Source: Acidimicrobiia bacterium (GTDB taxonomy: Bacteria > Actinomycetota > Acidimicrobiia > Spongiisociales > UBA11373). From it: a DNA stretch of 64,000 nucleotides. Shown one piece after another: positions 9,518-45,390 of this stretch. The stretch lies in assembly GCA_041572755.1 (NCBI GenBank), contig JBFFRY010000002.1:3901-67900 (forward strand), read 5' to 3'. A model generated the notes under the pieces. It did no database searches, was not told the DNA's origin, and worked only from the letters and a program-made list of their open reading frames with translations. Position numbers and translations under genes: made by a program. Each line of letters begins with the position of its first letter. The stretch's first letter is position 1.

Positions 9518-10219
9518 CTAGCCGGGTCGCCGAGCCGTGATGGAAGCACCCACCACCGCCGGCGGAGCACCGACGAGCCGGCCCGTGATCTCGATCCCCG
9601 GACGCCGGAAGCCCGCATCGATCAACATCTGCAGGTACTCGTTTGCCTCCAGGGCACCCGCCACACAGCCAGTCCAGGCGGCCACGTCGGCGGCAACGTC
9701 TTCCGGCAGGGGGTGGAGCAGCACGATGTCGCTCACCGCGAAGGTTCCCCCGGGCCGGAGCACCCGGAATGCCTCTGCGAGGGCCCGGTCCTTCTCGGGT
9801 GACAGATTGATCACGCAGTTGCTGATGATCACGTCGATCGAGGCGTCGGGCAGCGGGATGTCTTCGAGGTCGCCCTTGAGGAACTCGACGTTGTCGATCC
9901 CGGCCTCGGCTTGGTTCTTCCTGGCCACGTCGAGCATCTCGTCGGTCATGTCGAGGCCGTAGACCTTTCCCGTCGCTCCGACTCGACGGGCCGCCAGGAA
10001 GGCATCGAGGCCCGCCCCGCTCCCCAGATCGAGCACGACCTGCCCCTCCGCCAGGTCGGCCATGGCAACCGGGTTACCGCAGCCGAGCGAAGCGTCTGCG
10101 GCGCCCTCCAGACCCTCGAGATTCTCGCCCGGGTAGAGGTCGGGAGCACAGCAGTCGGATGATGGGGCCGAAGCCAGTTGCGCGTACCGCTTCCTGACCG
10201 CCTCCTTGATACTCACCAT
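9518..10219 (-). CDS. arsM: Class I SAM-dependent methyltransferase, arsenite methyltransferase (ArsM/AS3MT)-like.
   Basis: SAM motif I VLDLGSGAGLD, plus conserved Cys clusters (SSDCCAPD, LGCGNP, TGCVAG) resembling ArsM catalytic cysteines. 233 aa, shorter than typical ArsM. Confidence 0.6.
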   Translation of the reverse strand: MVSIKEAVRKRYAQLASAPSSDCCAPDLYPGENLEGLEGAADASLGCGNPVAMADLAEGQVVLDLGSGAGLDAFLAARRVGATGKVYGLDMTDEMLDVARKNQAEAGIDNVEFLKGDLEDIPLPDASIDVIISNCVINLSPEKDRALAEAFRVLRPGGTFAVSDIVLLHPLPEDVAADVAAWTGCVAGALEANEYLQMLIDAGFRRPGIEITGRLVGAPPAVVGASITARRPG

Positions 10220-10227
10220 GGGTCCTC

Positions 10228-10264
10228 CTATCGACAGCCATCAATATATCGATAGTTGTCGATG
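10228..10264. promoter_or_regulatory. AT-rich imperfect palindrome in the arsM / lonN divergent intergenic region (candidate operator/promoter).
   Basis: CTATCGACA-gccatcaata-TATCGATA-gt-TGTCGATg. Centred on the TATCGATA self-palindrome, flanked by inverted CTATCGACA / TGTCGAT(A)G arms. The most AT-rich patch in the region. Confidence 0.3.
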
Positions 10265-10287
10265 TATGCAAGATAGAGTCGCCCCTG

Positions 10288-10905
10288 ATGGCAGAACTCC
10301 CGATGTTTCCGCTCGAGAACCCCGTCTTCCCCTACACCGCGATACCCCTCCACATCTTCGAGGAGCGGTACCGACGGATGATCCATGATCTGCTCGACGG
10401 CGACGGCAGGCTCGGAGTCGTGATGATCCAACGCGGCAGCGAGGTGGGGGGTGGCGACATACGAAGCGAGGTCGGCACCCTGTGCCGGATGGCCGATGCC
10501 GAAGAACTCGATGATGGGCGCTGGATCGCAATCGTGGTCGGCCTCGAACGGATTCGCGTGCGACGCTGGACGACCGAAGACCCCTATCCCAAGGCCGAAG
10601 TCGAACCGCACCCCGCCCTGCCGGGCATGGTTGGAGCCGAAGAACGCGAGGCCCTCGAGTCATCGGTCCGACGCCTTGCCGCCTTGCTCGCCGAACTCGA
10701 CGAGCCGGGCCCACCCGTCACCGTGGAGCTGGCCGCCGAGCCCATCGCCGCAGCATTCCAGGCCATCGTCGCCTCACCCATCGGCGCCCACGATGCACAG
10801 CGTCTCCTCGAGGTGCCCGGCGGCGACCAACTGGTGGCGGGTGTGCTCGAGGCGCTCGCCGACAAGGAGGATCTGGCCCGCCTCCGGCTCAGCACCGGTG
10901 GCTAA
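10288..10905 (+). CDS. Stand-alone Lon protease N-terminal (substrate-binding) domain protein.
   Basis: LPMFPLENPVFPYTAIPLHIFEERYRRMIHDLL matches the Lon N-domain start (LPLFPL..VLFPG..LPLHIFEPRY). No AAA+ or protease domain follows (205 aa). Confidence 0.75.
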   Translation: MAELPMFPLENPVFPYTAIPLHIFEERYRRMIHDLLDGDGRLGVVMIQRGSEVGGGDIRSEVGTLCRMADAEELDDGRWIAIVVGLERIRVRRWTTEDPYPKAEVEPHPALPGMVGAEEREALESSVRRLAALLAELDEPGPPVTVELAAEPIAAAFQAIVASPIGAHDAQRLLEVPGGDQLVAGVLEALADKEDLARLRLSTGG

Positions 10906-27608: not shown

Positions 27609-27911
27609 CTATGCCTCCAATGCCTCGGTCACCCAGGCGATCAACTGGTGAAACGGCACCTCGTTGACCGCCGGATCGGCAATCAATATGTAATCCCGCT
27701 CGCCTCTCATCGGCGACCGGGCCGCCGCCTCTCGCAATCGGCGTTTGGCGCGGTTCCGAGCCACTGCGGTGCCCACCCGGCGACCGGCGATCACCGCGAG
27801 GCGCGGTGGACCGGGCACGCCGACGGCACTCACGACGACCACGCCACCGACCCGTCTTCGAGACCCGGCCCGGCGGACCCTTCGAAGATCGGAACGGTGG
27901 TGCAGCGACGT
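27609..27911 (-). CDS. rnpA: Ribonuclease P protein component RnpA. The 5' end is uncertain: the ORF-track ATG at 28037 lies inside rpmH, and the real start is probably a non-ATG codon near 27900-27940.
   Basis: [25 protein letters not shown] ... [15 protein letters not shown] matches the RnpA core (R/L-R-x-x-D-F ... NR.KRR.RE). The frame overlaps the rpmH 3' end. Confidence 0.7.
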
Positions 27912-27924
27912 GTAGGGCCGGCCT

Positions 27925-28059
27925 CTATGCAGAGAGACGGGCCCGACCCTTGGCGCGGCGCCGCTTGATGATCGCCCGGCCGGCGCGGGTGCGCATCCGA
28001 GCGCGAAAACCGTGCTTCCGCTTGCGGCGTCGAACATTCGGCTGATACGTGCGCTTCAT
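27925..28059 (-). CDS. rpmH: 50S ribosomal protein L34 (not in the ORF track; found by manual translation).
   Basis: [44 protein letters not shown] (44 aa). A near-exact match to the universal L34 sequence. Confidence 0.95.
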
Positions 28060-28520
28060 GAGAGTCCCGAGTAGGGAAGAGTACGCTGGCGCGACAGGTT
28101 ACGAACACCCGGAGAGCATGTCAAAGGTCGGAGGGTGGGTCGCGCCGTCATCCCAACCCGGATCGCGGAAAATGCATTTGACCCGCGAAACAATCCCTTC
28201 GGTGCTTTGGCGACTTCGTCGCCTTCTCAGCGACCGGGTCTGGCTCCCTTCTCGGGTCGATTCTCTTTGATTTTCAAGGGATTTCGCCCACTCGACCGGT
28301 CTGGGGTGCCACCGTGCAAGGTCGGATTTGTCGTTCTTGTGCGCCACTCGCCCTCTCCATAGACTCCGTCGTCGCCGGAGCTTCCGGCTGACTTCCCACA
28401 GAGACGGCAGGTCGGTGAGCAGCCGAAGTGGCGGCCCCCCCCGACCGTGGATCTTCTCCACAGATGTGGATAGGGCTGTGGAGAAGCGGGAGTGGTATCG
28501 GGAAGACGAGAGGCAGGGAC
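28060..28520. other. Candidate chromosomal replication origin (oriC) and dnaA promoter region: the rpmH-dnaA intergenic spacer with a DnaA-box cluster and an AT-rich patch.
   Basis: DnaA-box-like 9-mers: TTCCCACAG (28393-28401); palindromic arrangement TTCTCCACAG (28454-63) / ATGTGGATAG (28464-73, 8/9 to TTATCCACA on the complementary strand) / CTGTGGAGAA (28476-85). AT-rich stretch gattctctttgattttcaagggatttcg (~28258-28285). Confidence 0.55.
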
Positions 28521-29882
28521 GTGGAGGCGCACTCCGCCGCTGACAGCTGGGAGCGATTCAGGCAAGACCTCCGGGGCCGCGTCACCCCGATCACCTGGCA
28601 GACCTGGCTCGACGCACTCAAACCTCAAGCGGTAGACGCCGACGTCGTCCGCTTGCTGGCACCCAGTGAGTTTCACCTCCGCTGGGTCAACGACAAGTAC
28701 CGACCCGTCGTCGAGGATGCGGTGACTGCCGTGTTCGGTCCCAACGCCGAGTTGGTCATGGACGCCCGCCCCGAACCCATCTACACCCTGGAAGGTGCCG
28801 AGGAGGATTCCGGGCCCGACGCCTTCGTGCAAGAGCCGGATCCGGCGACCGACGGACGGCCCCGTCTTGCCCCCAAGTACACCTTCGAGAACTTCGTGGT
28901 GGGGCCCTCGAACCGCTTTGCCCACGCTGCGGCCATGGCCATCGCCGAGCATCCCGGGGGCCAGTACAACCCCCTGTTCGTGTATGGCGGCGCCGGCCTC
29001 GGCAAGACCCACCTCCTCCAGGCGGTCGGATTGCACAGCCGCGATCTCAATGCGCGCCTCGTCACTCGCTATGTGACATCTGAGCACTTCATCAACGACT
29101 TCATCGACGGTATCCGCCGCAAGCGCATGGACGAGTTCAAGGCCCGCTACCGGAGCGTCGACCTGTTCTTGTTGGATGACGTCCAATTTCTGGAAGGCAA
29201 GGAGCAGATCCTCGAGGAGTTCTTTCACACCTTCAACGCTCTCTACGAGACCGGCAAGCAGTTGGTCTTCTCGTCGGACCGGCCCCCGCGTGACCTCTCC
29301 ACGCTCGAAGACCGCATCAGAAGCCGCTTCGAATGGGGACTCACCACCGACATCCAGCCGCCGGACGTCGAAACCCGGTTGGCGATTCTTCGAAAGAACG
29401 CCGCCTTCGCTTCCCAGCCGGTACCCGAAGCCGTCCTGGAATTCATTGCCAATCGAGTCGTCGACAACATCCGCGAGCTCGAGGGTGCTCTCACCCGGGT
29501 CACGGCGTACGCGGCGTTGACCCATCAACCCATCGACCTCGACATGACTGCCGATGTCCTTCAAGACCTGGGACCGGAGCACACTTCGGCCCCCATCAGC
29601 ACGGGGCAGATCTTGGCCATGACGGCTTCTTCCTTTGGTTTCTCTATCGCAGACCTGGAGGGTCCGAGTCGGCGTCAGCCTCTCGCTCGAGCACGCCAGG
29701 TGGCGATGTACCTGTGCCGGGAACTCACCGATCTCTCTCTTCCCAAGATCGGCTCGCTCTTTGGCGGCCGCGACCACACGACGGCGCTCCACGGCATCAA
29801 CAACGTCAAGCGCCTGATTCAGACCGACCAGCAACTCTTCGATCAGGTCACCGCCCTGTTACAAAGCCTGAGGAATTCTTGA
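28521..29882 (+). CDS. dnaA: Chromosomal replication initiator DnaA. The start was re-assigned to the GTG at 28521 (VEAHSAADSWERFRQDL...); the ORF-track ATG at 28428 would translate through the DnaA-box cluster.
   Basis: AAA+ Walker A GGAGLGKTHLL, box VII/sensor motifs, C-terminal HTH DNA-binding domain (LTDLSLPKIGSLFGGRDHTTALHGI). RBS-like gaggcaggga before the GTG. Confidence 0.95.
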   Translation: MEAHSAADSWERFRQDLRGRVTPITWQTWLDALKPQAVDADVVRLLAPSEFHLRWVNDKYRPVVEDAVTAVFGPNAELVMDARPEPIYTLEGAEEDSGPDAFVQEPDPATDGRPRLAPKYTFENFVVGPSNRFAHAAAMAIAEHPGGQYNPLFVYGGAGLGKTHLLQAVGLHSRDLNARLVTRYVTSEHFINDFIDGIRRKRMDEFKARYRSVDLFLLDDVQFLEGKEQILEEFFHTFNALYETGKQLVFSSDRPPRDLSTLEDRIRSRFEWGLTTDIQPPDVETRLAILRKNAAFASQPVPEAVLEFIANRVVDNIRELEGALTRVTAYAALTHQPIDLDMTADVLQDLGPEHTSAPISTGQILAMTASSFGFSIADLEGPSRRQPLARARQVAMYLCRELTDLSLPKIGSLFGGRDHTTALHGINNVKRLIQTDQQLFDQVTALLQSLRNS

Positions 29883-30072
29883 AGCCTTTTCCCCAGCCCC
29901 TCCATCCCGTTGCACCCGCATGGGGAGAACTCGCGATTCGTCCTCAGCCGGTGTGCACGATCAATAGGGGCCTTAACCTGGGCTTTCGCAACGTTGCCCA
30001 CAATCCCCAACCCCTACGACTACAACTGTTCTTTGAATCCTTAGGAAAGAAACTCGTAGAAGGACAACAAAG

Positions 30073-31152
30073 GTGCGGATAAGAGCGGAGCGAGACGACC
30101 TCGCCGATGTCCTGGGTCGAGCGGGTCGTGCCATCGGGACCAGGTCGCCTTTGGCGATCGTTCAAGGACTGCTGCTCGAGGTGGAGGGGAAGACCCTCCG
30201 AGTGACGGGCACCGACCTGGACGTCACGATCAGAACGGAACTCGAGGTCGAGGTCATCAGGGAAGGACGAACTGTGATTCCCGCCCGCCTGGCGGGAGAG
30301 GCCGTTCGCAAACTCCCGCCGGGAGCGGTGGTGATCGAGGCTGGAGATGGCGAAGTCGAGATTGCAGGGGGAGGCCCGACCTTCCGGTTTCGTGAATTGC
30401 CCGTCGACGATTATCCGAAAGTTGCCGAACCGGATCTCGACGGGGCGATCGAGGTGGACGGGGAGGTCTTCGGGGATGCCCTGGTCCAGGTTGCCACCGC
30501 TGCCTCGACCGACGATGCCCGCCCCATCCTGACCGGCGTCTACTTCGAGAGCGAGGGAGGCAGCCTCCGCGTCGTGGCCACCGATTCCTACCGGCTGGCT
30601 GTTCGCGATCTCCCTCAGGTGGAAACCGACATTTCGGGGCTGGTTCCGGTCCGAGCGTTGCGTGAACTGCGGCGGACGATCGGGGCAGCGCGTCTCAAAG
30701 TTGCCATCGGAGCTCGGGAGGCAACCTTCCAATCAGAACGGGGAACATTGACGGCCCGATTGATCGAGGGCACGTTCCCCAACTATCGGCAGTTGATTCC
30801 GGAGGCCTATCCCAACCGGCTGACGATCGAGCGTGATGCGCTTCTCGAGGCGGTGGATCGCGCCGCTCTGGTGGCTGAGGATCACATCCCGATCCGTATG
30901 CGCGTGCAAGAAGGGGGCGTCGAGCTGAGCGTGACCCGGCAAGACGTCGGAGGCGAGACAGAGCACGTGACCGCCGATTATCAGGGCGAGGAGATGACTA
31001 TCGCCTTCAACTCGAGGTACTTGAACGATGGAGTCAGTGCGGTGGACTCCGACAACGTGGTACTCGACATGCTCGATCCTCTGAAGCCGGGGGTCATTCG
31101 GGGTGCGGGCGATGAGGACTTCCTCTATCTGCTGATGCCGGTCCGGCTCTGA
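30073..31152 (+). CDS. dnaN: DNA polymerase III beta sliding clamp; GTG start.
   Basis: Three-domain beta-clamp; MRIRAERDDLADVL..., LTGV.FE...L..VATDSYRLAV..., PLKPGVIR. 359 aa. Confidence 0.95.
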   Translation: MRIRAERDDLADVLGRAGRAIGTRSPLAIVQGLLLEVEGKTLRVTGTDLDVTIRTELEVEVIREGRTVIPARLAGEAVRKLPPGAVVIEAGDGEVEIAGGGPTFRFRELPVDDYPKVAEPDLDGAIEVDGEVFGDALVQVATAASTDDARPILTGVYFESEGGSLRVVATDSYRLAVRDLPQVETDISGLVPVRALRELRRTIGAARLKVAIGAREATFQSERGTLTARLIEGTFPNYRQLIPEAYPNRLTIERDALLEAVDRAALVAEDHIPIRMRVQEGGVELSVTRQDVGGETEHVTADYQGEEMTIAFNSRYLNDGVSAVDSDNVVLDMLDPLKPGVIRGAGDEDFLYLLMPVRL

Positions 31153-31159
31153 GCCGGCC

Positions 31160-32251
31160 GTGTATCTGGCCTGGCTCGACCTCAGGGACTTTCGGTGCCA
31201 CGAGTCGCTGGAGATCCGACCGGATCCGGCCGTCAACGTGTTCATCGGGAACAACGGCTCGGGCAAGACGAGCCTGTTGGAGGCCGTGGGCTACCTGGCC
31301 TCGCTGAAGTCGTTCCGGCGAGCTCCGGACGCTGCTTTGGTGCGGCAAGGGGCTGATGCGGCCGTGATCAGAGGTGAGTTCGGCGATGGTGAACGGACGA
31401 TTCGGGTCGAGATCGAGATTCCGGCCGAAGGACGGCGCCGTGTTCTCCTCAACGGCAAGAGACCCAAGAACCGGGCAGAAGTCGTTGCATCGATCCCCTT
31501 GGTCGCCTTTCTGCCCGACGATCTCGACCTCGTGAAGCGGGGCCCGGCCTATCGACGGGAGTACGTCGACGACGTTGCGGCCGCCCTGTGGCCCCAGGCC
31601 GGGGTCGAGCAACAGGAGTACGAGCGAGCCGTCAGACAGCGCAACGCGTTGCTTCGGCGCGAGGGGAGGCAGGCCGACCCGACCTCCCTGGACGTCTGGG
31701 ACGAGCGCCTGGTGCGGTTGGGGAGTGCAGTCGTCCGACGCCGGATTCGTTCGTTGGAACTGATTGGCAGCCGGCTCGAGGATCTCTATGCGGAGATGAC
31801 GGCCGTCGTCGAATCGTTCGCCTGGCGCTACGAGTCTGCTTCGGTGGGCGACGGCACGGGTTCCGTCGAACAGCGCCTCGCCGAGGCCGTGACCCTGGCC
31901 CGTTCCGTCGATGTGGAGCGGCGAGTCTCCACGGTCGGGCCCCATCGTGACGAGATAGGCTTTCACCTCTCCGGACGCGACGTGCGAACCAGAGCCAGCC
32001 AGGGGGAGCAGCGGGCGGTGGCGCTGAGTCTGCGGGTCGCCGCCTACGAAGTGCTGCGTCGCGAGCGCGGGGCAACGCCCCTGCTGGTCCTCGACGACGT
32101 CTTTTCCGAACTCGATGCCGAACGGAGTCGTCGCCTGGTCGGCAGGCTGCCGGACGGGCAGGTATTCGTCAGTTCGGCTCGCGAGGATGAAGTGCCGGTG
32201 AGGGGGATGCGCTGGACGGTGTCGGCGGGAGGAATCGATCGGCGTGAGTGA
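31160..32251 (+). CDS. recF: DNA replication/repair protein RecF; GTG start.
   Basis: L..L.L.DFRCHESL (RecF start), Walker A GNNGSGKTSLLEAV, SGEQRAVALSLR signature, LLVLDDVFSELD. Confidence 0.95.
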   Translation: MYLAWLDLRDFRCHESLEIRPDPAVNVFIGNNGSGKTSLLEAVGYLASLKSFRRAPDAALVRQGADAAVIRGEFGDGERTIRVEIEIPAEGRRRVLLNGKRPKNRAEVVASIPLVAFLPDDLDLVKRGPAYRREYVDDVAAALWPQAGVEQQEYERAVRQRNALLRREGRQADPTSLDVWDERLVRLGSAVVRRRIRSLELIGSRLEDLYAEMTAVVESFAWRYESASVGDGTGSVEQRLAEAVTLARSVDVERRVSTVGPHRDEIGFHLSGRDVRTRASQGEQRAVALSLRVAAYEVLRRERGATPLLVLDDVFSELDAERSRRLVGRLPDGQVFVSSAREDEVPVRGMRWTVSAGGIDRRE

Positions 32252-32552
32252 TCTCGAACACGTCGGTATGGGCCTCGATGGTCTGCTGCGGCGACTGGGC
32301 ATGCCCGACGCCGTGGACCTGGAGCGGCTCGTCAAGGACTGGGTGGAATTGGCCGGGGACCCGTGGGCCGACACGGCCACCCCGGTGGGCTGGCGGGACG
32401 GCGTCTTGGTGGTAGAAGTCGGTGACGGCACCACGGCGACCTTGCTCCGTTACGAGGCGGAGGCACTCATGAAGCGCCTGACAAAGGGTCTCGGGGGAGC
32501 GCTGGTCACAGCGATTCGCATCCGGGTGGCTCGCGGCAAAAAGGGCCTCTGA
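32244..32552 (+). CDS. dciA: DUF721 / DciA-like protein (homolog of the Rv0004 position between recF and gyrB); GTG start overlapping the recF end by 8 nt.
   Basis: 102 aa. The DWVELAGDPWADTATPVGWRDGVLVVEVGDGTTATLLRYEAEALMKRL pattern is typical of DUF721 (W..vvG..la.ht.P..l.dGvL.v.v.ssaWa.eLr...). Confidence 0.75.
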   Translation: MSDLEHVGMGLDGLLRRLGMPDAVDLERLVKDWVELAGDPWADTATPVGWRDGVLVVEVGDGTTATLLRYEAEALMKRLTKGLGGALVTAIRIRVARGKKGL

Positions 32553-44625: not shown

Positions 44626-45390
44626 ATGGCGGGCCGGAGATCCCGGGTGTATCGGGCCGACCGGGTGGCGCCGTTGCAGTGGGTGCTTTCGGTCGATGGA
44701 AGACCGCAGTCCGATCACCGGTCCTACCGAGCCGCGGTGCAGCACGCCCGGGCGGTGGAGCGTGGATTCAGGACGAGGCGAGCCGTGGTTCGCAACGGCA
44801 TCACCCTGCTCGTGTGCCTCATCGCTGTGGGTCTCGTCGTCGAATTCCGGCATGTCGCCAATCCGGACTACGACCCGGCGCGCGCCTTCGTCGAACGCAT
44901 GGAGGCAGAAGCCCGCGCCACGATCGCCGGATCGGTGGTGGAGCCCGACGGGGACATTCGGGCGGCGTCATTCCTGCTCGAGGTCGGCACCGCCGGAGAG
45001 CAGGAGGTTTGGGTGATCACCGGGGACTTCGGCGGAGACTGCTACTTGATCCGGTGGCGGCCGGGCGAAGCACCGTTTGTCGCCGTGCTTGCACCCCGTC
45101 ACCCGTGTGAGCCGGGACCGGCGGCTTTGTCCACAGCGGCCGATGGCTTCGAGCGGGTGGCGGTGCAACTGTTCGCCGACCGGCCGATCGACTGGGATCC
45201 GGTTCTCCCGGCGGAGGAGAACCTGGCGGTGTGGTTCTTCCCGGTCGTCTTCGTGACGGCCTTCCTGGTGCTTCGGACTCTGGTGAGCATTTCGATCATC
45301 GCCATACAACGGGGGGTTCCCACGCCGGCCATACCGGTGGAACGCCGTGAGCCCGGCGATCAGCGGCAGAGGTCGGTGACGAGCGGATAG
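44626..45390 (+). CDS. Hypothetical membrane-anchored protein (start at the ATG at 44626 or the ORF-track 44590).
   Basis: One N-terminal TM (ITLLVCLIAVGLVV) and one C-terminal TM (VWFFPVVFVTAFLVLRTLVSISIIAI). No family recognised. Confidence 0.4.
   Translation: MAGRRSRVYRADRVAPLQWVLSVDGRPQSDHRSYRAAVQHARAVERGFRTRRAVVRNGITLLVCLIAVGLVVEFRHVANPDYDPARAFVERMEAEARATIAGSVVEPDGDIRAASFLLEVGTAGEQEVWVITGDFGGDCYLIRWRPGEAPFVAVLAPRHPCEPGPAALSTAADGFERVAVQLFADRPIDWDPVLPAEENLAVWFFPVVFVTAFLVLRTLVSISIIAIQRGVPTPAIPVERREPGDQRQRSVTSG

Follow-up and report, generated by a model that had tools for sequence, protein, structure and literature searches.

The locus analysed here raises the question of where the chromosome opens for replication: in the spacer upstream of dnaA, which holds a tight group of DnaA boxes, or in the spacer between dnaA and dnaN. 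The window, i.e. the whole stretch of 64 kb that was analysed, has the classical gene order parB-parA-rsmG-jag-yidC-yidD-rnpA-rpmH <> dnaA-dnaN-recF-dciA-gyrB-gyrA and gene orientation diverges at the rpmH-dnaA spacer. As part of the best explanation, we take it to cover the origin region of the chromosome in an uncultured Acidimicrobiia bacterium (Actinomycetota). A literature search for experimental work on an Acidimicrobiia origin found nothing specific. An earlier sequence-only reading had placed oriC upstream of dnaA rather than in the dnaA-dnaN spacer. Its boxes turned out to be genuine, conserved and non-coding and its dnaA start at GTG 28521 held, whereas its placement of the origin was not supported. 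Judged by sequence comparison, the locus probably has a Bacillus-like two-cluster layout, in which an upstream operator or accessory cluster is combined with unwinding downstream in the dnaA-dnaN spacer; we assign this reading a probability of roughly 0.7. The genes that frame the two spacers are the following:

27925-28059, - strand: rpmH (ribosomal protein L34; Pfam Ribosomal_L34, E = 1.7e-22, full length), the left edge of the upstream spacer
28521-29882, + strand: dnaA, 453 aa (Pfam DnaA_N, Bac_DnaA, Bac_DnaA_C)
30073-31152, + strand: dnaN, beta clamp (Pfam DNA_pol3_beta domains 1-3)
32244-32552, + strand: dciA, helicase operator (Pfam DciA, E = 4.4e-16), context for helicase loading at the origin

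The dnaA start codon

Whether the upstream boxes are coding depends on the start of dnaA. Two features are needed here:

28435-28442: poly-C tract, its length differing among near-identical strains
28508-28523, + strand: Shine-Dalgarno sequence GAGAGG (28508-28513) and start codon GTG (28521-28523); a GGAGG-like block before the start is kept in relatives

Translation of dnaA starts at GTG 28521 and the boxes are thus non-coding. The sequence-only reading was right about this codon, which GAGAGG precedes. The start is not new, as public annotation already uses it: the NCBI/JGI gene call is the exact 453-aa DnaA, and the 484- and 472-aa versions are absent. A start further upstream, at GTG 28428 or ATG 28464, would turn the boxes into coding sequence, and the reading frame is indeed open from 28428 (the codon there had been taken for an ATG, but it is a GTG and the first in-frame ATG is at 28464). 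We regard the probability of such a start as practically negligible. Pfam DnaA_N begins at about residue 9 counted from GTG 28521, neither of the two upstream codons has a Shine-Dalgarno sequence 5' of it, and in loci L001 and L003 the homologous stretch between the boxes and the dnaA start contains in-frame stops. The extension also changes between near-identical strains through an indel in the poly-C tract. Mechanically called dnaA reading frames in these strains are 484, 472 and 525 aa long because the length of the tract varies (L081 has one additional C; L082 has a shorter tract with a T), and the strains that differ in the upstream extension otherwise have near-identical DnaA.

DnaA boxes and probable promoters of the rpmH-dnaA spacer

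The spacer upstream of dnaA contains the following elements:

28096-28124, - strand: probable rpmH promoter (-35 TTGACA 28124-28119, 17 nt, -10 TAACCT 28101-28096), as read from the sequence
28164-28191, + strand: direct repeat CGCG(G)AAA ... CGCGAAA, 20-21 bp apart, a clade-specific conserved element
28256-28285: AT-rich patch, 37% GC, the unwinding element of the earlier reading and unsupported in that role
28337-28365, + strand: probable dnaA promoter (-35 TTGTGC 28337-28342, 17 nt, -10 TAGACT 28360-28365), from a conserved alignment
28454-28462, + strand: DnaA box 1, TTCTCCACA, aligned with a box in eight of eight genomes
28465-28473, - strand: DnaA box 2, CTATCCACA, its centre 11 bp from that of box 1
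28477-28485, - strand: DnaA box 3, TTCTCCACA, its centre 12 bp from that of box 2

The coordinates given earlier for the three boxes (28454-28485) are correct, with the sequences read directly. Each box is one mismatch away from consensus and all three fall within 32 bp; they make up three of the five matches to TTATCCACA that we found in 64 kb when allowing at most one mismatch. For TTNTCCACA, again with at most one mismatch, the rpmH-dnaA spacer shows three matches where 0.16 were expected (P = 6e-4), which confirms the predicted enrichment of boxes in 28060-28520 over the background. Three boxes in 40 bp were seen in none of 200 Markov-1 random sequences. We also compared the boxes across eight genomes, whose DnaA identity is just 55-63%. 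The CA of box 1 is invariant in all eight and the remaining core is retained in seven of them, while the TGTGGA of boxes 2 and 3 is invariant throughout with divergent flanks. A sister strain carries about 25 substitutions over the spacer and none within 28445-28520.

About 33 of 81 loci share the forward-reverse-reverse arrangement upstream of dnaA; they belong to several phyla and include Acidimicrobiia, Gaiellales, Bacillota and others. Its gaps are mostly 2-3 bp, and there are 35 matches in one orientation compared to two in the opposite one. In the window the trio lies 36-67 bp before the GTG start, with the end of box 3 about 35-36 bp from the GTG. The protein encoded next to it is suited to reading such 9-mers: domain IV matches Bac_DnaA_C (E = 2e-25) and the residues that read the box (R, P, D-H-T and H; list: PMC7561715) all occur in ARARQVAMYL...LPKIG...GRDHTTALHG. 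By their conservation the trio boxes are genuine DnaA sites outside the coding sequence, and DnaA is predicted to bind them. A further box had been proposed at 28393-28401 (TTCCCACAG). We rejected this candidate; relatives align a conserved CACTTCCCC block and have no DnaA box at that site.

The probable dnaA promoter aligns with a TCTTGAC-N17/18-nAtACT block in six relatives and A2 and T6 of its -10 element are kept in all of them. From this -10 element to box 1 the distance is about 90 bp (89), the promoter lying upstream. For the rpmH promoter, AGGTTAC and TGTCAAAG blocks are kept in several relatives. A generic sigma-70 scan of 27900-30200 returned 0 promoter matches; we did not take this as absence because both conserved promoters are below its thresholds (3/6 matches in one hexamer). 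The direct repeat is conserved in the window and in loci L001, L003-L007 and L081-L083, always on the + strand, and is unique in 64 kb. A terminator-like hairpin at 28237-28258 was dismissed as chance, two such hairpins having been found compared to 2.0 expected.

Because a conserved sigma-70-type promoter lies about 90 bp upstream, the trio appears to sit in the 5' untranslated leader of dnaA; the promoter is deduced from its conservation and the leader position of the trio is consequently a deduction of the same kind. Given this promoter, the boxes lie between promoter and start codon as an operator should. DnaA represses dnaA via boxes downstream of the promoter in E. coli, B. subtilis, S. 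lividans and mycobacteria (PMC2533591; PMC8203912). By analogy, the trio would be a high-affinity DnaA-binding module for autorepression of dnaA: three DnaA monomers bound to the leader trio, spaced by 11-12 bp along the same face of the helix, would block transcription from the dnaA promoter when DnaA is abundant.

Alternatively, the palindrome could act in the leader as an RNA hairpin that controls mRNA stability or translation instead of binding DnaA. Boxes 1 and 3 would form a stem of 10-11 bp, which the minimum-free-energy fold of the window's leader predicts, as does the centroid fold. The leader folds no better than shuffled sequences, however (z = 0.31), the alignment fold has an unfavourable covariation term (+0.83), and the six core pairs are either invariant or, in one genome, broken without a compensatory change. 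Furthermore, the conserved letters always correspond to the DnaA-box consensus across phyla, including those of box 2 in the 'loop'. We consider a hairpin function extremely unlikely. An Rfam scan at E <= 1 gave as its only match AsdA inside the dnaA coding sequence, below threshold (34.6 compared to 52 bits), which we discounted because it reflects dnaA coding conservation and no spacer RNA.

Boxes, trios and stability of the dnaA-dnaN spacer

The second spacer contains the following elements:

29887-29960: degenerate boxes by mismatch count, TTTTCCCCA at 29887 (+), TTCTCCCCA at 29921 (-), TCGTCCTCA at 29938 (+) and TCGTGCACA at 29952 (-)
29994-30009, + strand: tandem boxes of a module resembling the basal unwinding system (BUS), TTGCCCACA (29994-30002) and ATCCCCA (30003-30009), aligned with tnTCCACA-ATCCACA in relatives
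30010-30034, - strand: GC spacer ACCC (30010-30013) and DnaA-trio array from 30014, from the alignment with relatives
30014-30073: probable DNA unwinding region, AT-rich (40% GC), the least stable 60-mer

According to the sequence-only reading there was no box cluster between dnaA and dnaN. The count by which that reading was to be judged says otherwise, with four matches of at most one mismatch in 200 bp compared to 0.07 expected (P = 7e-7). At up to two mismatches there are six sites, most of which coincide with consensus or near-consensus boxes of relatives. At the positions of 29887 and 29921 most relatives carry TATCCACA- and GTGGATAA-type boxes, whereas the site at 29952 aligns with GTGGAC in two relatives only (L001 and L002). 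One of the four matches, TTATCCGCA at 30074 on the - strand, was rejected as a DnaA box: it is probably coding or chance, as it runs into the dnaN start codon and is replaced by GAGAATCC in relatives. All downstream boxes are off consensus in the window strain (CCCCA or GCCCACA cores); several relatives carry consensus boxes in this spacer. Counting consensus boxes alone is misleading at this locus because the probable origin boxes are degenerate and are revealed only by comparative alignment.

The tandem boxes agree with the box rule of the BUS, which allows at most two mismatches in the box and at most four in an optional second tandem box: TTGCCCACA has two mismatches to TTATCCACA and one to the actinobacterial TTGTCCACA, and the second box (cAATCCCCA/ATCCCCA), which follows directly, has three. 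The first trio follows the first box after 11 nt including ACCC, within the permitted 16 bp; a GC-rich gap of about 4 bp is typical of the BUS. A spacing of 11 nt is also seen in L001, L007 and further Acidimicrobiia loci (L010, L012, L055 and L077); in L002 and L004-L006 the spacing is 5-13 nt.

The trio array itself reads CTA CGA CTA CAA CTG TTC TTT on the top strand and 3'-GAT GCT GAT GTT GAC AAG AAA-5' on the bottom strand. It is the best conserved non-coding block of the dnaA-dnaN spacer, and relatives show CTA CTA CnA CTA CTA (GAT GAT GnT GAT GAT). The published BUS rule asks for at least three consecutive 3'-NAN-5' trios (consensus 3'-GAT-5') adjoining the box, on the strand that runs 3'->5' away from the boxes. 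The array of the window fails this rule because its trios 2 and 4 are GCT and GTT. The first run of three NAN trios does not begin before trio 5, at a distance of 16 nt from the second box, and the array is below the threshold of our own BUS scan. Read against its relatives the array is degenerate in the window strain; the strict rule holds only in the sister strain L082, where CTA CTA CTA gives three canonical trios, GAT GAT GAT. Across loci the scan detected the module in 42 of 72 dnaA-dnaN spacers in + orientation and in 0 of 72 in - orientation. For the spacers upstream of dnaA the corresponding values were 1 of 68 (+) and 0 of 68 (-).

No other 60-mer in the 64 kb is less stable than 30014-30073 (z = 4.86). 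The cumulative G-C curve reaches its minimum at 30040 and the change point was placed at 30045 (2-lnL range 29909-30180), at the limited resolution that 64 kb provide. The GC-skew switch expected at the rpmH-dnaA spacer is thus found elsewhere, in the dnaA-dnaN spacer, and the curve is nearly flat over 26.5-28.8 kb. Seven of seven relatives show negative skew in dnaA and positive skew in dnaN, and their cumulative minimum falls within or beside the dnaA-dnaN spacer. Much of the minimum in the window stems from dnaA, whose own negative skew could be a gene-specific composition effect.

Under the two-cluster reading the duplex would most likely open in this spacer, 1.5 kb away from the upstream trio. 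DnaA would bind the weak tandem boxes at 29994-30009, and a filament of ATP-DnaA would then form on the bottom-strand trinucleotide repeats from 30014. The AT-rich stretch would melt up to the dnaN start, and DnaB would subsequently be loaded with DciA. The upstream trio may in addition loop out dnaA and so act as 'oriC1', one half of a Bacillus-like bipartite origin.

Competing origin models and known systems

The model of a wholly upstream origin holds that the rpmH-dnaA spacer is the functional oriC including its unwinding site: DnaA assembles on the trio, the AT-rich patch (28258-28285) unwinds and the dnaA-dnaN spacer plays no role. The model can point to the divergence of gene orientation at this spacer and to its boxes, which are the only ones within 14 kb with an intact TCCACA core. 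The patch does exist and ranks fourth among the least stable 30-mers of the window (z = 3.8). At 60 bp, however, its rank is >340; it is absent from the least stable 60- and 100-mers and its sequence is not conserved in relatives. It also lies about 170 bp from the trio with the conserved dnaA promoter between them, and within 16 bp of a box in the rpmH-dnaA spacer of the window we found no DnaA-trio array. The skew change point, the least stable 60-mer, the conserved BUS-like module and the denser box-like sites are all in the dnaA-dnaN spacer. On this evidence a wholly upstream origin is very unlikely.

In a true bipartite origin the trio would be needed in cis: as a high-affinity anchor it would loop out dnaA and help load DnaA on the weak downstream boxes, besides or in place of autoregulation; B. 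subtilis, C. difficile and H. pylori provide the precedents. The sequence-only reading had named a bipartite origin as its fallback, and this is compatible with the sequence. The clusters at 28454-28485 and 29887-30009 flank dnaA and the second adjoins an AT-rich stretch, which is the sequence definition of such an origin (PMC4285127). In known bipartite origins unwinding takes place in the dnaA-dnaN part (PMC6669920; PMC7561715; PMC4285127), and a distal DnaA box of B. subtilis can work through a loop across hundreds of bp (PMC6669920). The upstream boxes of the window strain are strong and the downstream ones all degenerate, and the same trio is present in Bacillota, where oriC1 is needed. 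On the other hand, the relatives with consensus boxes downstream have no evident need for a remote anchor. In Streptomyces and Mycobacterium the origin is located in the dnaA-dnaN spacer. It is described as continuous (PMC4285127), and the upstream boxes of these genera are described as autoregulatory (PMC8203912; PMC2533591). Overall we consider a true bipartite origin possible but unlikely. Going further, the trio might be an ancestral, phylum-spanning 'oriC1' module of Terrabacteria that is required in cis here as a dnaA-looping anchor because degeneracy affects all boxes and several of the trios in the dnaA-dnaN spacer of this lineage. We hold this to be improbable; if the trio were required in cis, Actinomycetota would have their first bipartite origin.

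On the preferred two-cluster reading, this uncultured Acidimicrobiia bacterium probably unwinds its chromosome at 30014-30073 and not upstream of dnaA. Beyond annotation the significance of this is small. The rigid forward-reverse-reverse trio, common to Actinomycetota, Bacillota and other phyla, could aid origin-prediction tools and inform thinking on an ancestral dnaA operator or oriC1. We found no name for it in the literature searched and do not claim that it is undescribed.

Streptomyces and Mycobacterium share phylum and gene order with the window, and S. coelicolor has a BUS string of the same form, TTATCCACG GTATCCACA GGCC CTACTACTACTG. The dnaA-dnaN spacer of Streptomyces, however, measures about 800-1000 bp and has many boxes compared to 190 bp with about six weak sites here, and its inverted box pairs lie inside that spacer, whereas ours lie upstream of dnaA. 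H. pylori and C. difficile (oriC1-dnaA-oriC2, unwinding in oriC2) resemble the window in having box clusters on both sides of dnaA, and the part that is AT-rich or bears trios follows dnaA (PMC4285127; PMC7561715). P1 nuclease and binding assays established those origins, whereas the reading of the window comes from sequence comparison. The BUS (Richardson et al. 2016/2019; Pelliciari et al. 2021) is matched in order, orientation and spacing: a box with at most two mismatches, a second tandem box, 11 nt between the first box and a first trio 3'-GAT-5', and AT-rich DNA beyond. The differences are the lack of a central adenine in trios 2 and 4 of the window and a third trio that is variable (GnT) clade-wide.

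The oriC of B. subtilis consists of oriC1/incAB upstream with the dnaA promoter and oriC2/incC between dnaA and dnaN, the latter with DnaA-boxes 6/7, DnaA-trios and the unwinding element (PMC6669920). The window differs from it in several respects. B. subtilis has 12 predicted sites compared to three upstream here, and the trio of Bacillota lies about 160-350 bp from the start codon compared to 36-67 bp. The downstream boxes and trios of the window are degenerate, and DnaI/DnaD/DnaB-type loaders are replaced by the helicase operator DciA. The forward-reverse-reverse trio is also present in the Bacillaceae loci L016 and L020. B. subtilis incB reportedly contains TTATCCACA-AAG-TGTGGATAA-GT-TGTGGATTG, for which these two loci provide indirect support. 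The likeness extends to the gene context, to box clusters on both sides of dnaA and to the tie between the upstream cluster and the dnaA promoter. In both cases the downstream cluster ends with tandem boxes, a 4-bp GC spacer, trios of the 3'-GAT-5' type and an AT-rich stretch, and the B. subtilis tandem boxes TTATCCACA-AATCCACA have the layout found at 29994-30009 of the window.

Gene neighbourhood and the start of dnaA

The minus strand carries the origin-proximal set parB, parA, rsmG, jag, yidC, yidD, rnpA and rpmH, and the plus strand carries dnaA, dnaN, recF, dciA, gyrB and gyrA. The dciA gene sits between recF and gyrB with an 8-nt overlap with the recF stop.

27925-28059, minus strand: rpmH
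30073-31152, plus strand: dnaN
32244-32552, plus strand: dciA, DciA-family helicase operator (Pfam DciA, E = 4e-16)

Among species-representative genomes the nearest DnaA relatives come from uncultured Acidimicrobiia/Actinomycetota MAGs (L001-L007, 55-63% identity), and the rpmH <> dnaA > dnaN layout is common to all of them. Public assemblies also contain near-identical strains (L081-L083). The mechanical rnpA ORF (27609-28059, minus strand) encodes 142 aa from the ATG at 28037 and overlaps rpmH. In the gene tables of L081-L083 the RNase P protein has only 74-77 aa and rpmH or rnpA is often left out, so the rnpA start is uncertain.

The start of dnaA is the GTG at 28521, as the sequence-only reading proposed; the upstream alternative at 28428 is a GTG and not the ATG it reported. 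Pfam DnaA_N begins about nine residues past 28521, and the relatives conserve a GGAGG-like Shine-Dalgarno sequence with a GTG or TTG after it. For L001 and L003 we found in-frame stop codons separating the homologous DnaA boxes from the start. A poly-C tract (C8, 28435-42) is longer or shorter in strains whose DnaA is identical or 97% identical: L081 has one additional C and L082 a shorter tract with a T. This variation in the dnaA leader may come from assembly or sequencing errors or reflect a hypervariable tract. Because of it the mechanical ORFs begin at different points and run to 484, 472 or 525 aa; the 453-aa protein does not change. Exactly this 453-aa sequence stands in the NCBI and JGI gene calls, and neither the 484- nor the 472-aa version occurs in a collection of 15 billion proteins. 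As public calls already use 453 aa, only the mechanical ORF list is corrected and not the existing annotation. Inside the Walker-A region of dnaA there is a sub-threshold match (28983-29038, minus strand; 34.6 bits, gathering threshold 52) to Rfam AsdA, the antisense RNA of Salmonella dnaA mRNA, which most likely reflects coding conservation.

The rpmH-dnaA spacer and its box trio

The whole spacer was aligned from seven genomes, and its motifs suggest that a divergent promoter region accounts for most of it.

28124-28096, minus strand: candidate rpmH promoter TTGACA-N17-TAACCT, before rpmH
28164-28191, plus strand: clade-specific direct repeat CGCG(G)AAA-N-CGCGAAA
28256-85: AT patch, not conserved in the alignment
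28337-42 and 28360-65, plus strand: candidate dnaA promoter, TTGTGC and TAGACT (conserved TCTTGAC-N17/18-nAtACT in the alignment)
28454-62, plus strand: DnaA box 1, TTCTCCACA
28465-73, minus strand: DnaA box 2, CTATCCACA
28477-85, minus strand: DnaA box 3, TTCTCCACA

The repeat lies between the divergent promoters, about 40-70 bp upstream of the rpmH -35, and looks like a regulator binding site. Two helical turns (20-21 bp) separate its halves, no second copy occurs in the 64 kb, and it is kept in L001, L003-L007 and L081-L083, always in the same orientation. Downstream of the candidate dnaA promoter follow, in order, a CACTTCCC block, the poly-C tract, the box trio, the Shine-Dalgarno sequence and the GTG. 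From this order the trio would occupy roughly positions +82 to +113 of the dnaA transcript predicted from the candidate promoter, with 35 bp between its end and the start codon.

All three boxes were found where the sequence-only reading had placed them. At up to one mismatch, TTATCCACA has only five matches in the 64 kb, and the trio boxes are three of these. When position 3 is left free (TTNTCCACA, up to one mismatch), the spacer holds three sites compared to 0.16 expected (P = 6e-4), and none of 200 Markov-1 randomisations contained a three-site cluster within 40 bp. A further proposed box, TTCCCACAG, aligns with a conserved CACTTCCCC block that is no DnaA box in the relatives. Boxes 2 and 3 in their cores, and box 1 at its 3' end, hold nearly all of the non-coding bases that are invariant across eight genomes, and the sister strain L082 shows ~25 substitutions across the spacer, none of them in 28445-28520. 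The upstream boxes are real, conserved, non-coding DnaA sites. We rejected an RNA-hairpin reading of the palindrome: shuffled leaders fold about as well as the real one (z = 0.31), the covariation term of the alignment fold is unfavourable, and no compensatory change was seen in the six core pairs.

We scanned the window and the dnaA loci L001-L080 for one forward and two reverse boxes in that order, with 0-4 nt between the first two, 0-6 nt between the last two and up to two mismatches per box. Upstream of dnaA there were 35 matches in dnaA orientation versus two in the opposite one; the first gap is nearly always 2-3 bp and the second 3 bp. They come from Acidimicrobiia, Gaiellales, Bacillaceae, Paenibacillaceae, Clostridia, a Sumerlaeota MAG and others, and lie 50-90 bp from the start codon in Acidimicrobiia compared to 160-350 bp in Bacillota. 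This rigid geometry across phyla is mildly notable; our literature searches found no paper naming a forward-reverse-reverse trio upstream of dnaA. The distribution suggests an old, widespread module that may be ancestral. Elsewhere, an isolated box TTGTCCACA (45127-45135, plus strand), the window's only perfect match to the actinobacterial consensus, lies in a stretch of overlapping mechanical ORFs, close to where a plus-strand ORF ends.

The dnaA-dnaN spacer

Of all 60-mers in the window, 30014-30073 is the least stable (z = 4.86). The AT-rich patch noted upstream is present and ranks fourth among 30-mers for instability, but it is ordinary at 60-100 bp as well as unconserved. The least stable 30-mer belongs to a 68-bp divergent intergenic region (10220-10287) with operator-like repeats CTATCGACAGCC, ATATCGATAG and TTGTCGATG, flanked by a minus-strand ORF whose end is at 10219 and a plus-strand ORF that begins at 10288.

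Within the 64-kb window the cumulative G-C minimum falls at 30040, in the dnaA-dnaN spacer and not upstream, though the curve is almost flat at 26.5-28.8 kb and gene-specific composition could contribute. A two-segment likelihood put the change point at 30045 (2-lnL range 29909-30180). In all seven genomes the GC skew of dnaA is negative (third positions -0.17 to -0.27), that of dnaN overall is non-negative, and the local cumulative minimum lies in or just past this spacer.

Nor is the spacer poor in boxes, as had been supposed: four sites with at most one mismatch occur in 200 bp compared to 0.07 expected (P = 7e-7), and six box-like sites with at most two. One of the four, at 30074, shares bases with the dnaN start and probably reflects coding sequence or chance. 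In the eight-genome alignment conserved boxes stand directly after the dnaA stop and ~35 nt further on; the best-conserved block reads tnTCCACA-ATCCACA-(G/C)4-CTA CTA CnA CTA CTA, followed by AT-rich DNA.

29887: degenerate box TTTTCCCCA, window version of the conserved box after the dnaA stop
29921: degenerate box TTCTCCCCA, window version of the second
29994-30002, 30003-09, 30010-13, 30014-34: TTGCCCACA, ATCCCCA, ACCC and CTA CGA CTA CAA CTG TTC TTT, together the window's block resembling a basal unwinding system (BUS)

For B. subtilis, whose BUS was defined by experiment, the supplement of Pelliciari et al. 2021 gives 3'-AATAGGTGT TTAGGTGT CCGG GATGATAATGAAGATGAT-5', and for S. coelicolor a predicted BUS, AATAGGTGC CATAGGTGT CCGG GATGATGATGAC; as top strand these read TTATCCACA AATCCACA GGCC CTACTA... 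(Pelliciari et al. 2021). The clade block is like both in order, orientation and spacing. A simple BUS scan called modules in 42/72 dnaA-dnaN spacers in forward and 0/72 in reverse orientation; for upstream spacers the two orientations gave 1/68 and 0/68. It called no module in the window's own dnaA-dnaN spacer. At the homologous position trios 2 and 4 of the window read GCT and GTT, so the published run of at least three consecutive NAN DnaA-trios (trinucleotide repeats) is not reached. L082, in its segment 2420-2640, has T for G at window position 30018, which yields CTA CTA CTA, three canonical GAT trios; the window, L081 and L083 share the G and its non-canonical second trio. Several downstream boxes of the window carry the same CCACA-to-CCCCA change. 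This degeneration of boxes and DnaA-trios in the window strain is mildly notable.

A probable two-part origin region

The proposal that the origin lies upstream of dnaA and not in the dnaA-dnaN spacer finds no support, as stability, skew and the BUS-like module all point downstream. The most economical reading has two parts, an upstream DnaA operator and a downstream unwinding module. DnaA would bind the operator in the dnaA leader and repress its own gene, and the upstream trio could also serve as an accessory, oriC1-like cluster. Unwinding would take place in the dnaA-dnaN spacer, and helicase loading would be assisted by DciA.

In B. subtilis the box cluster of the promoter region doubles as the oriC1 half of a bipartite origin (PMC6669920, PMC2533591). 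The same two-part arrangement, a leader operator or oriC1-like cluster together with a dnaA-dnaN unwinding module, has been described in Bacillus; with Streptomyces and Mycobacterium the likeness concerns the unwinding part, which is likewise located in the dnaA-dnaN spacer. On this reading the origin region described here would be a further instance of an arrangement already known.
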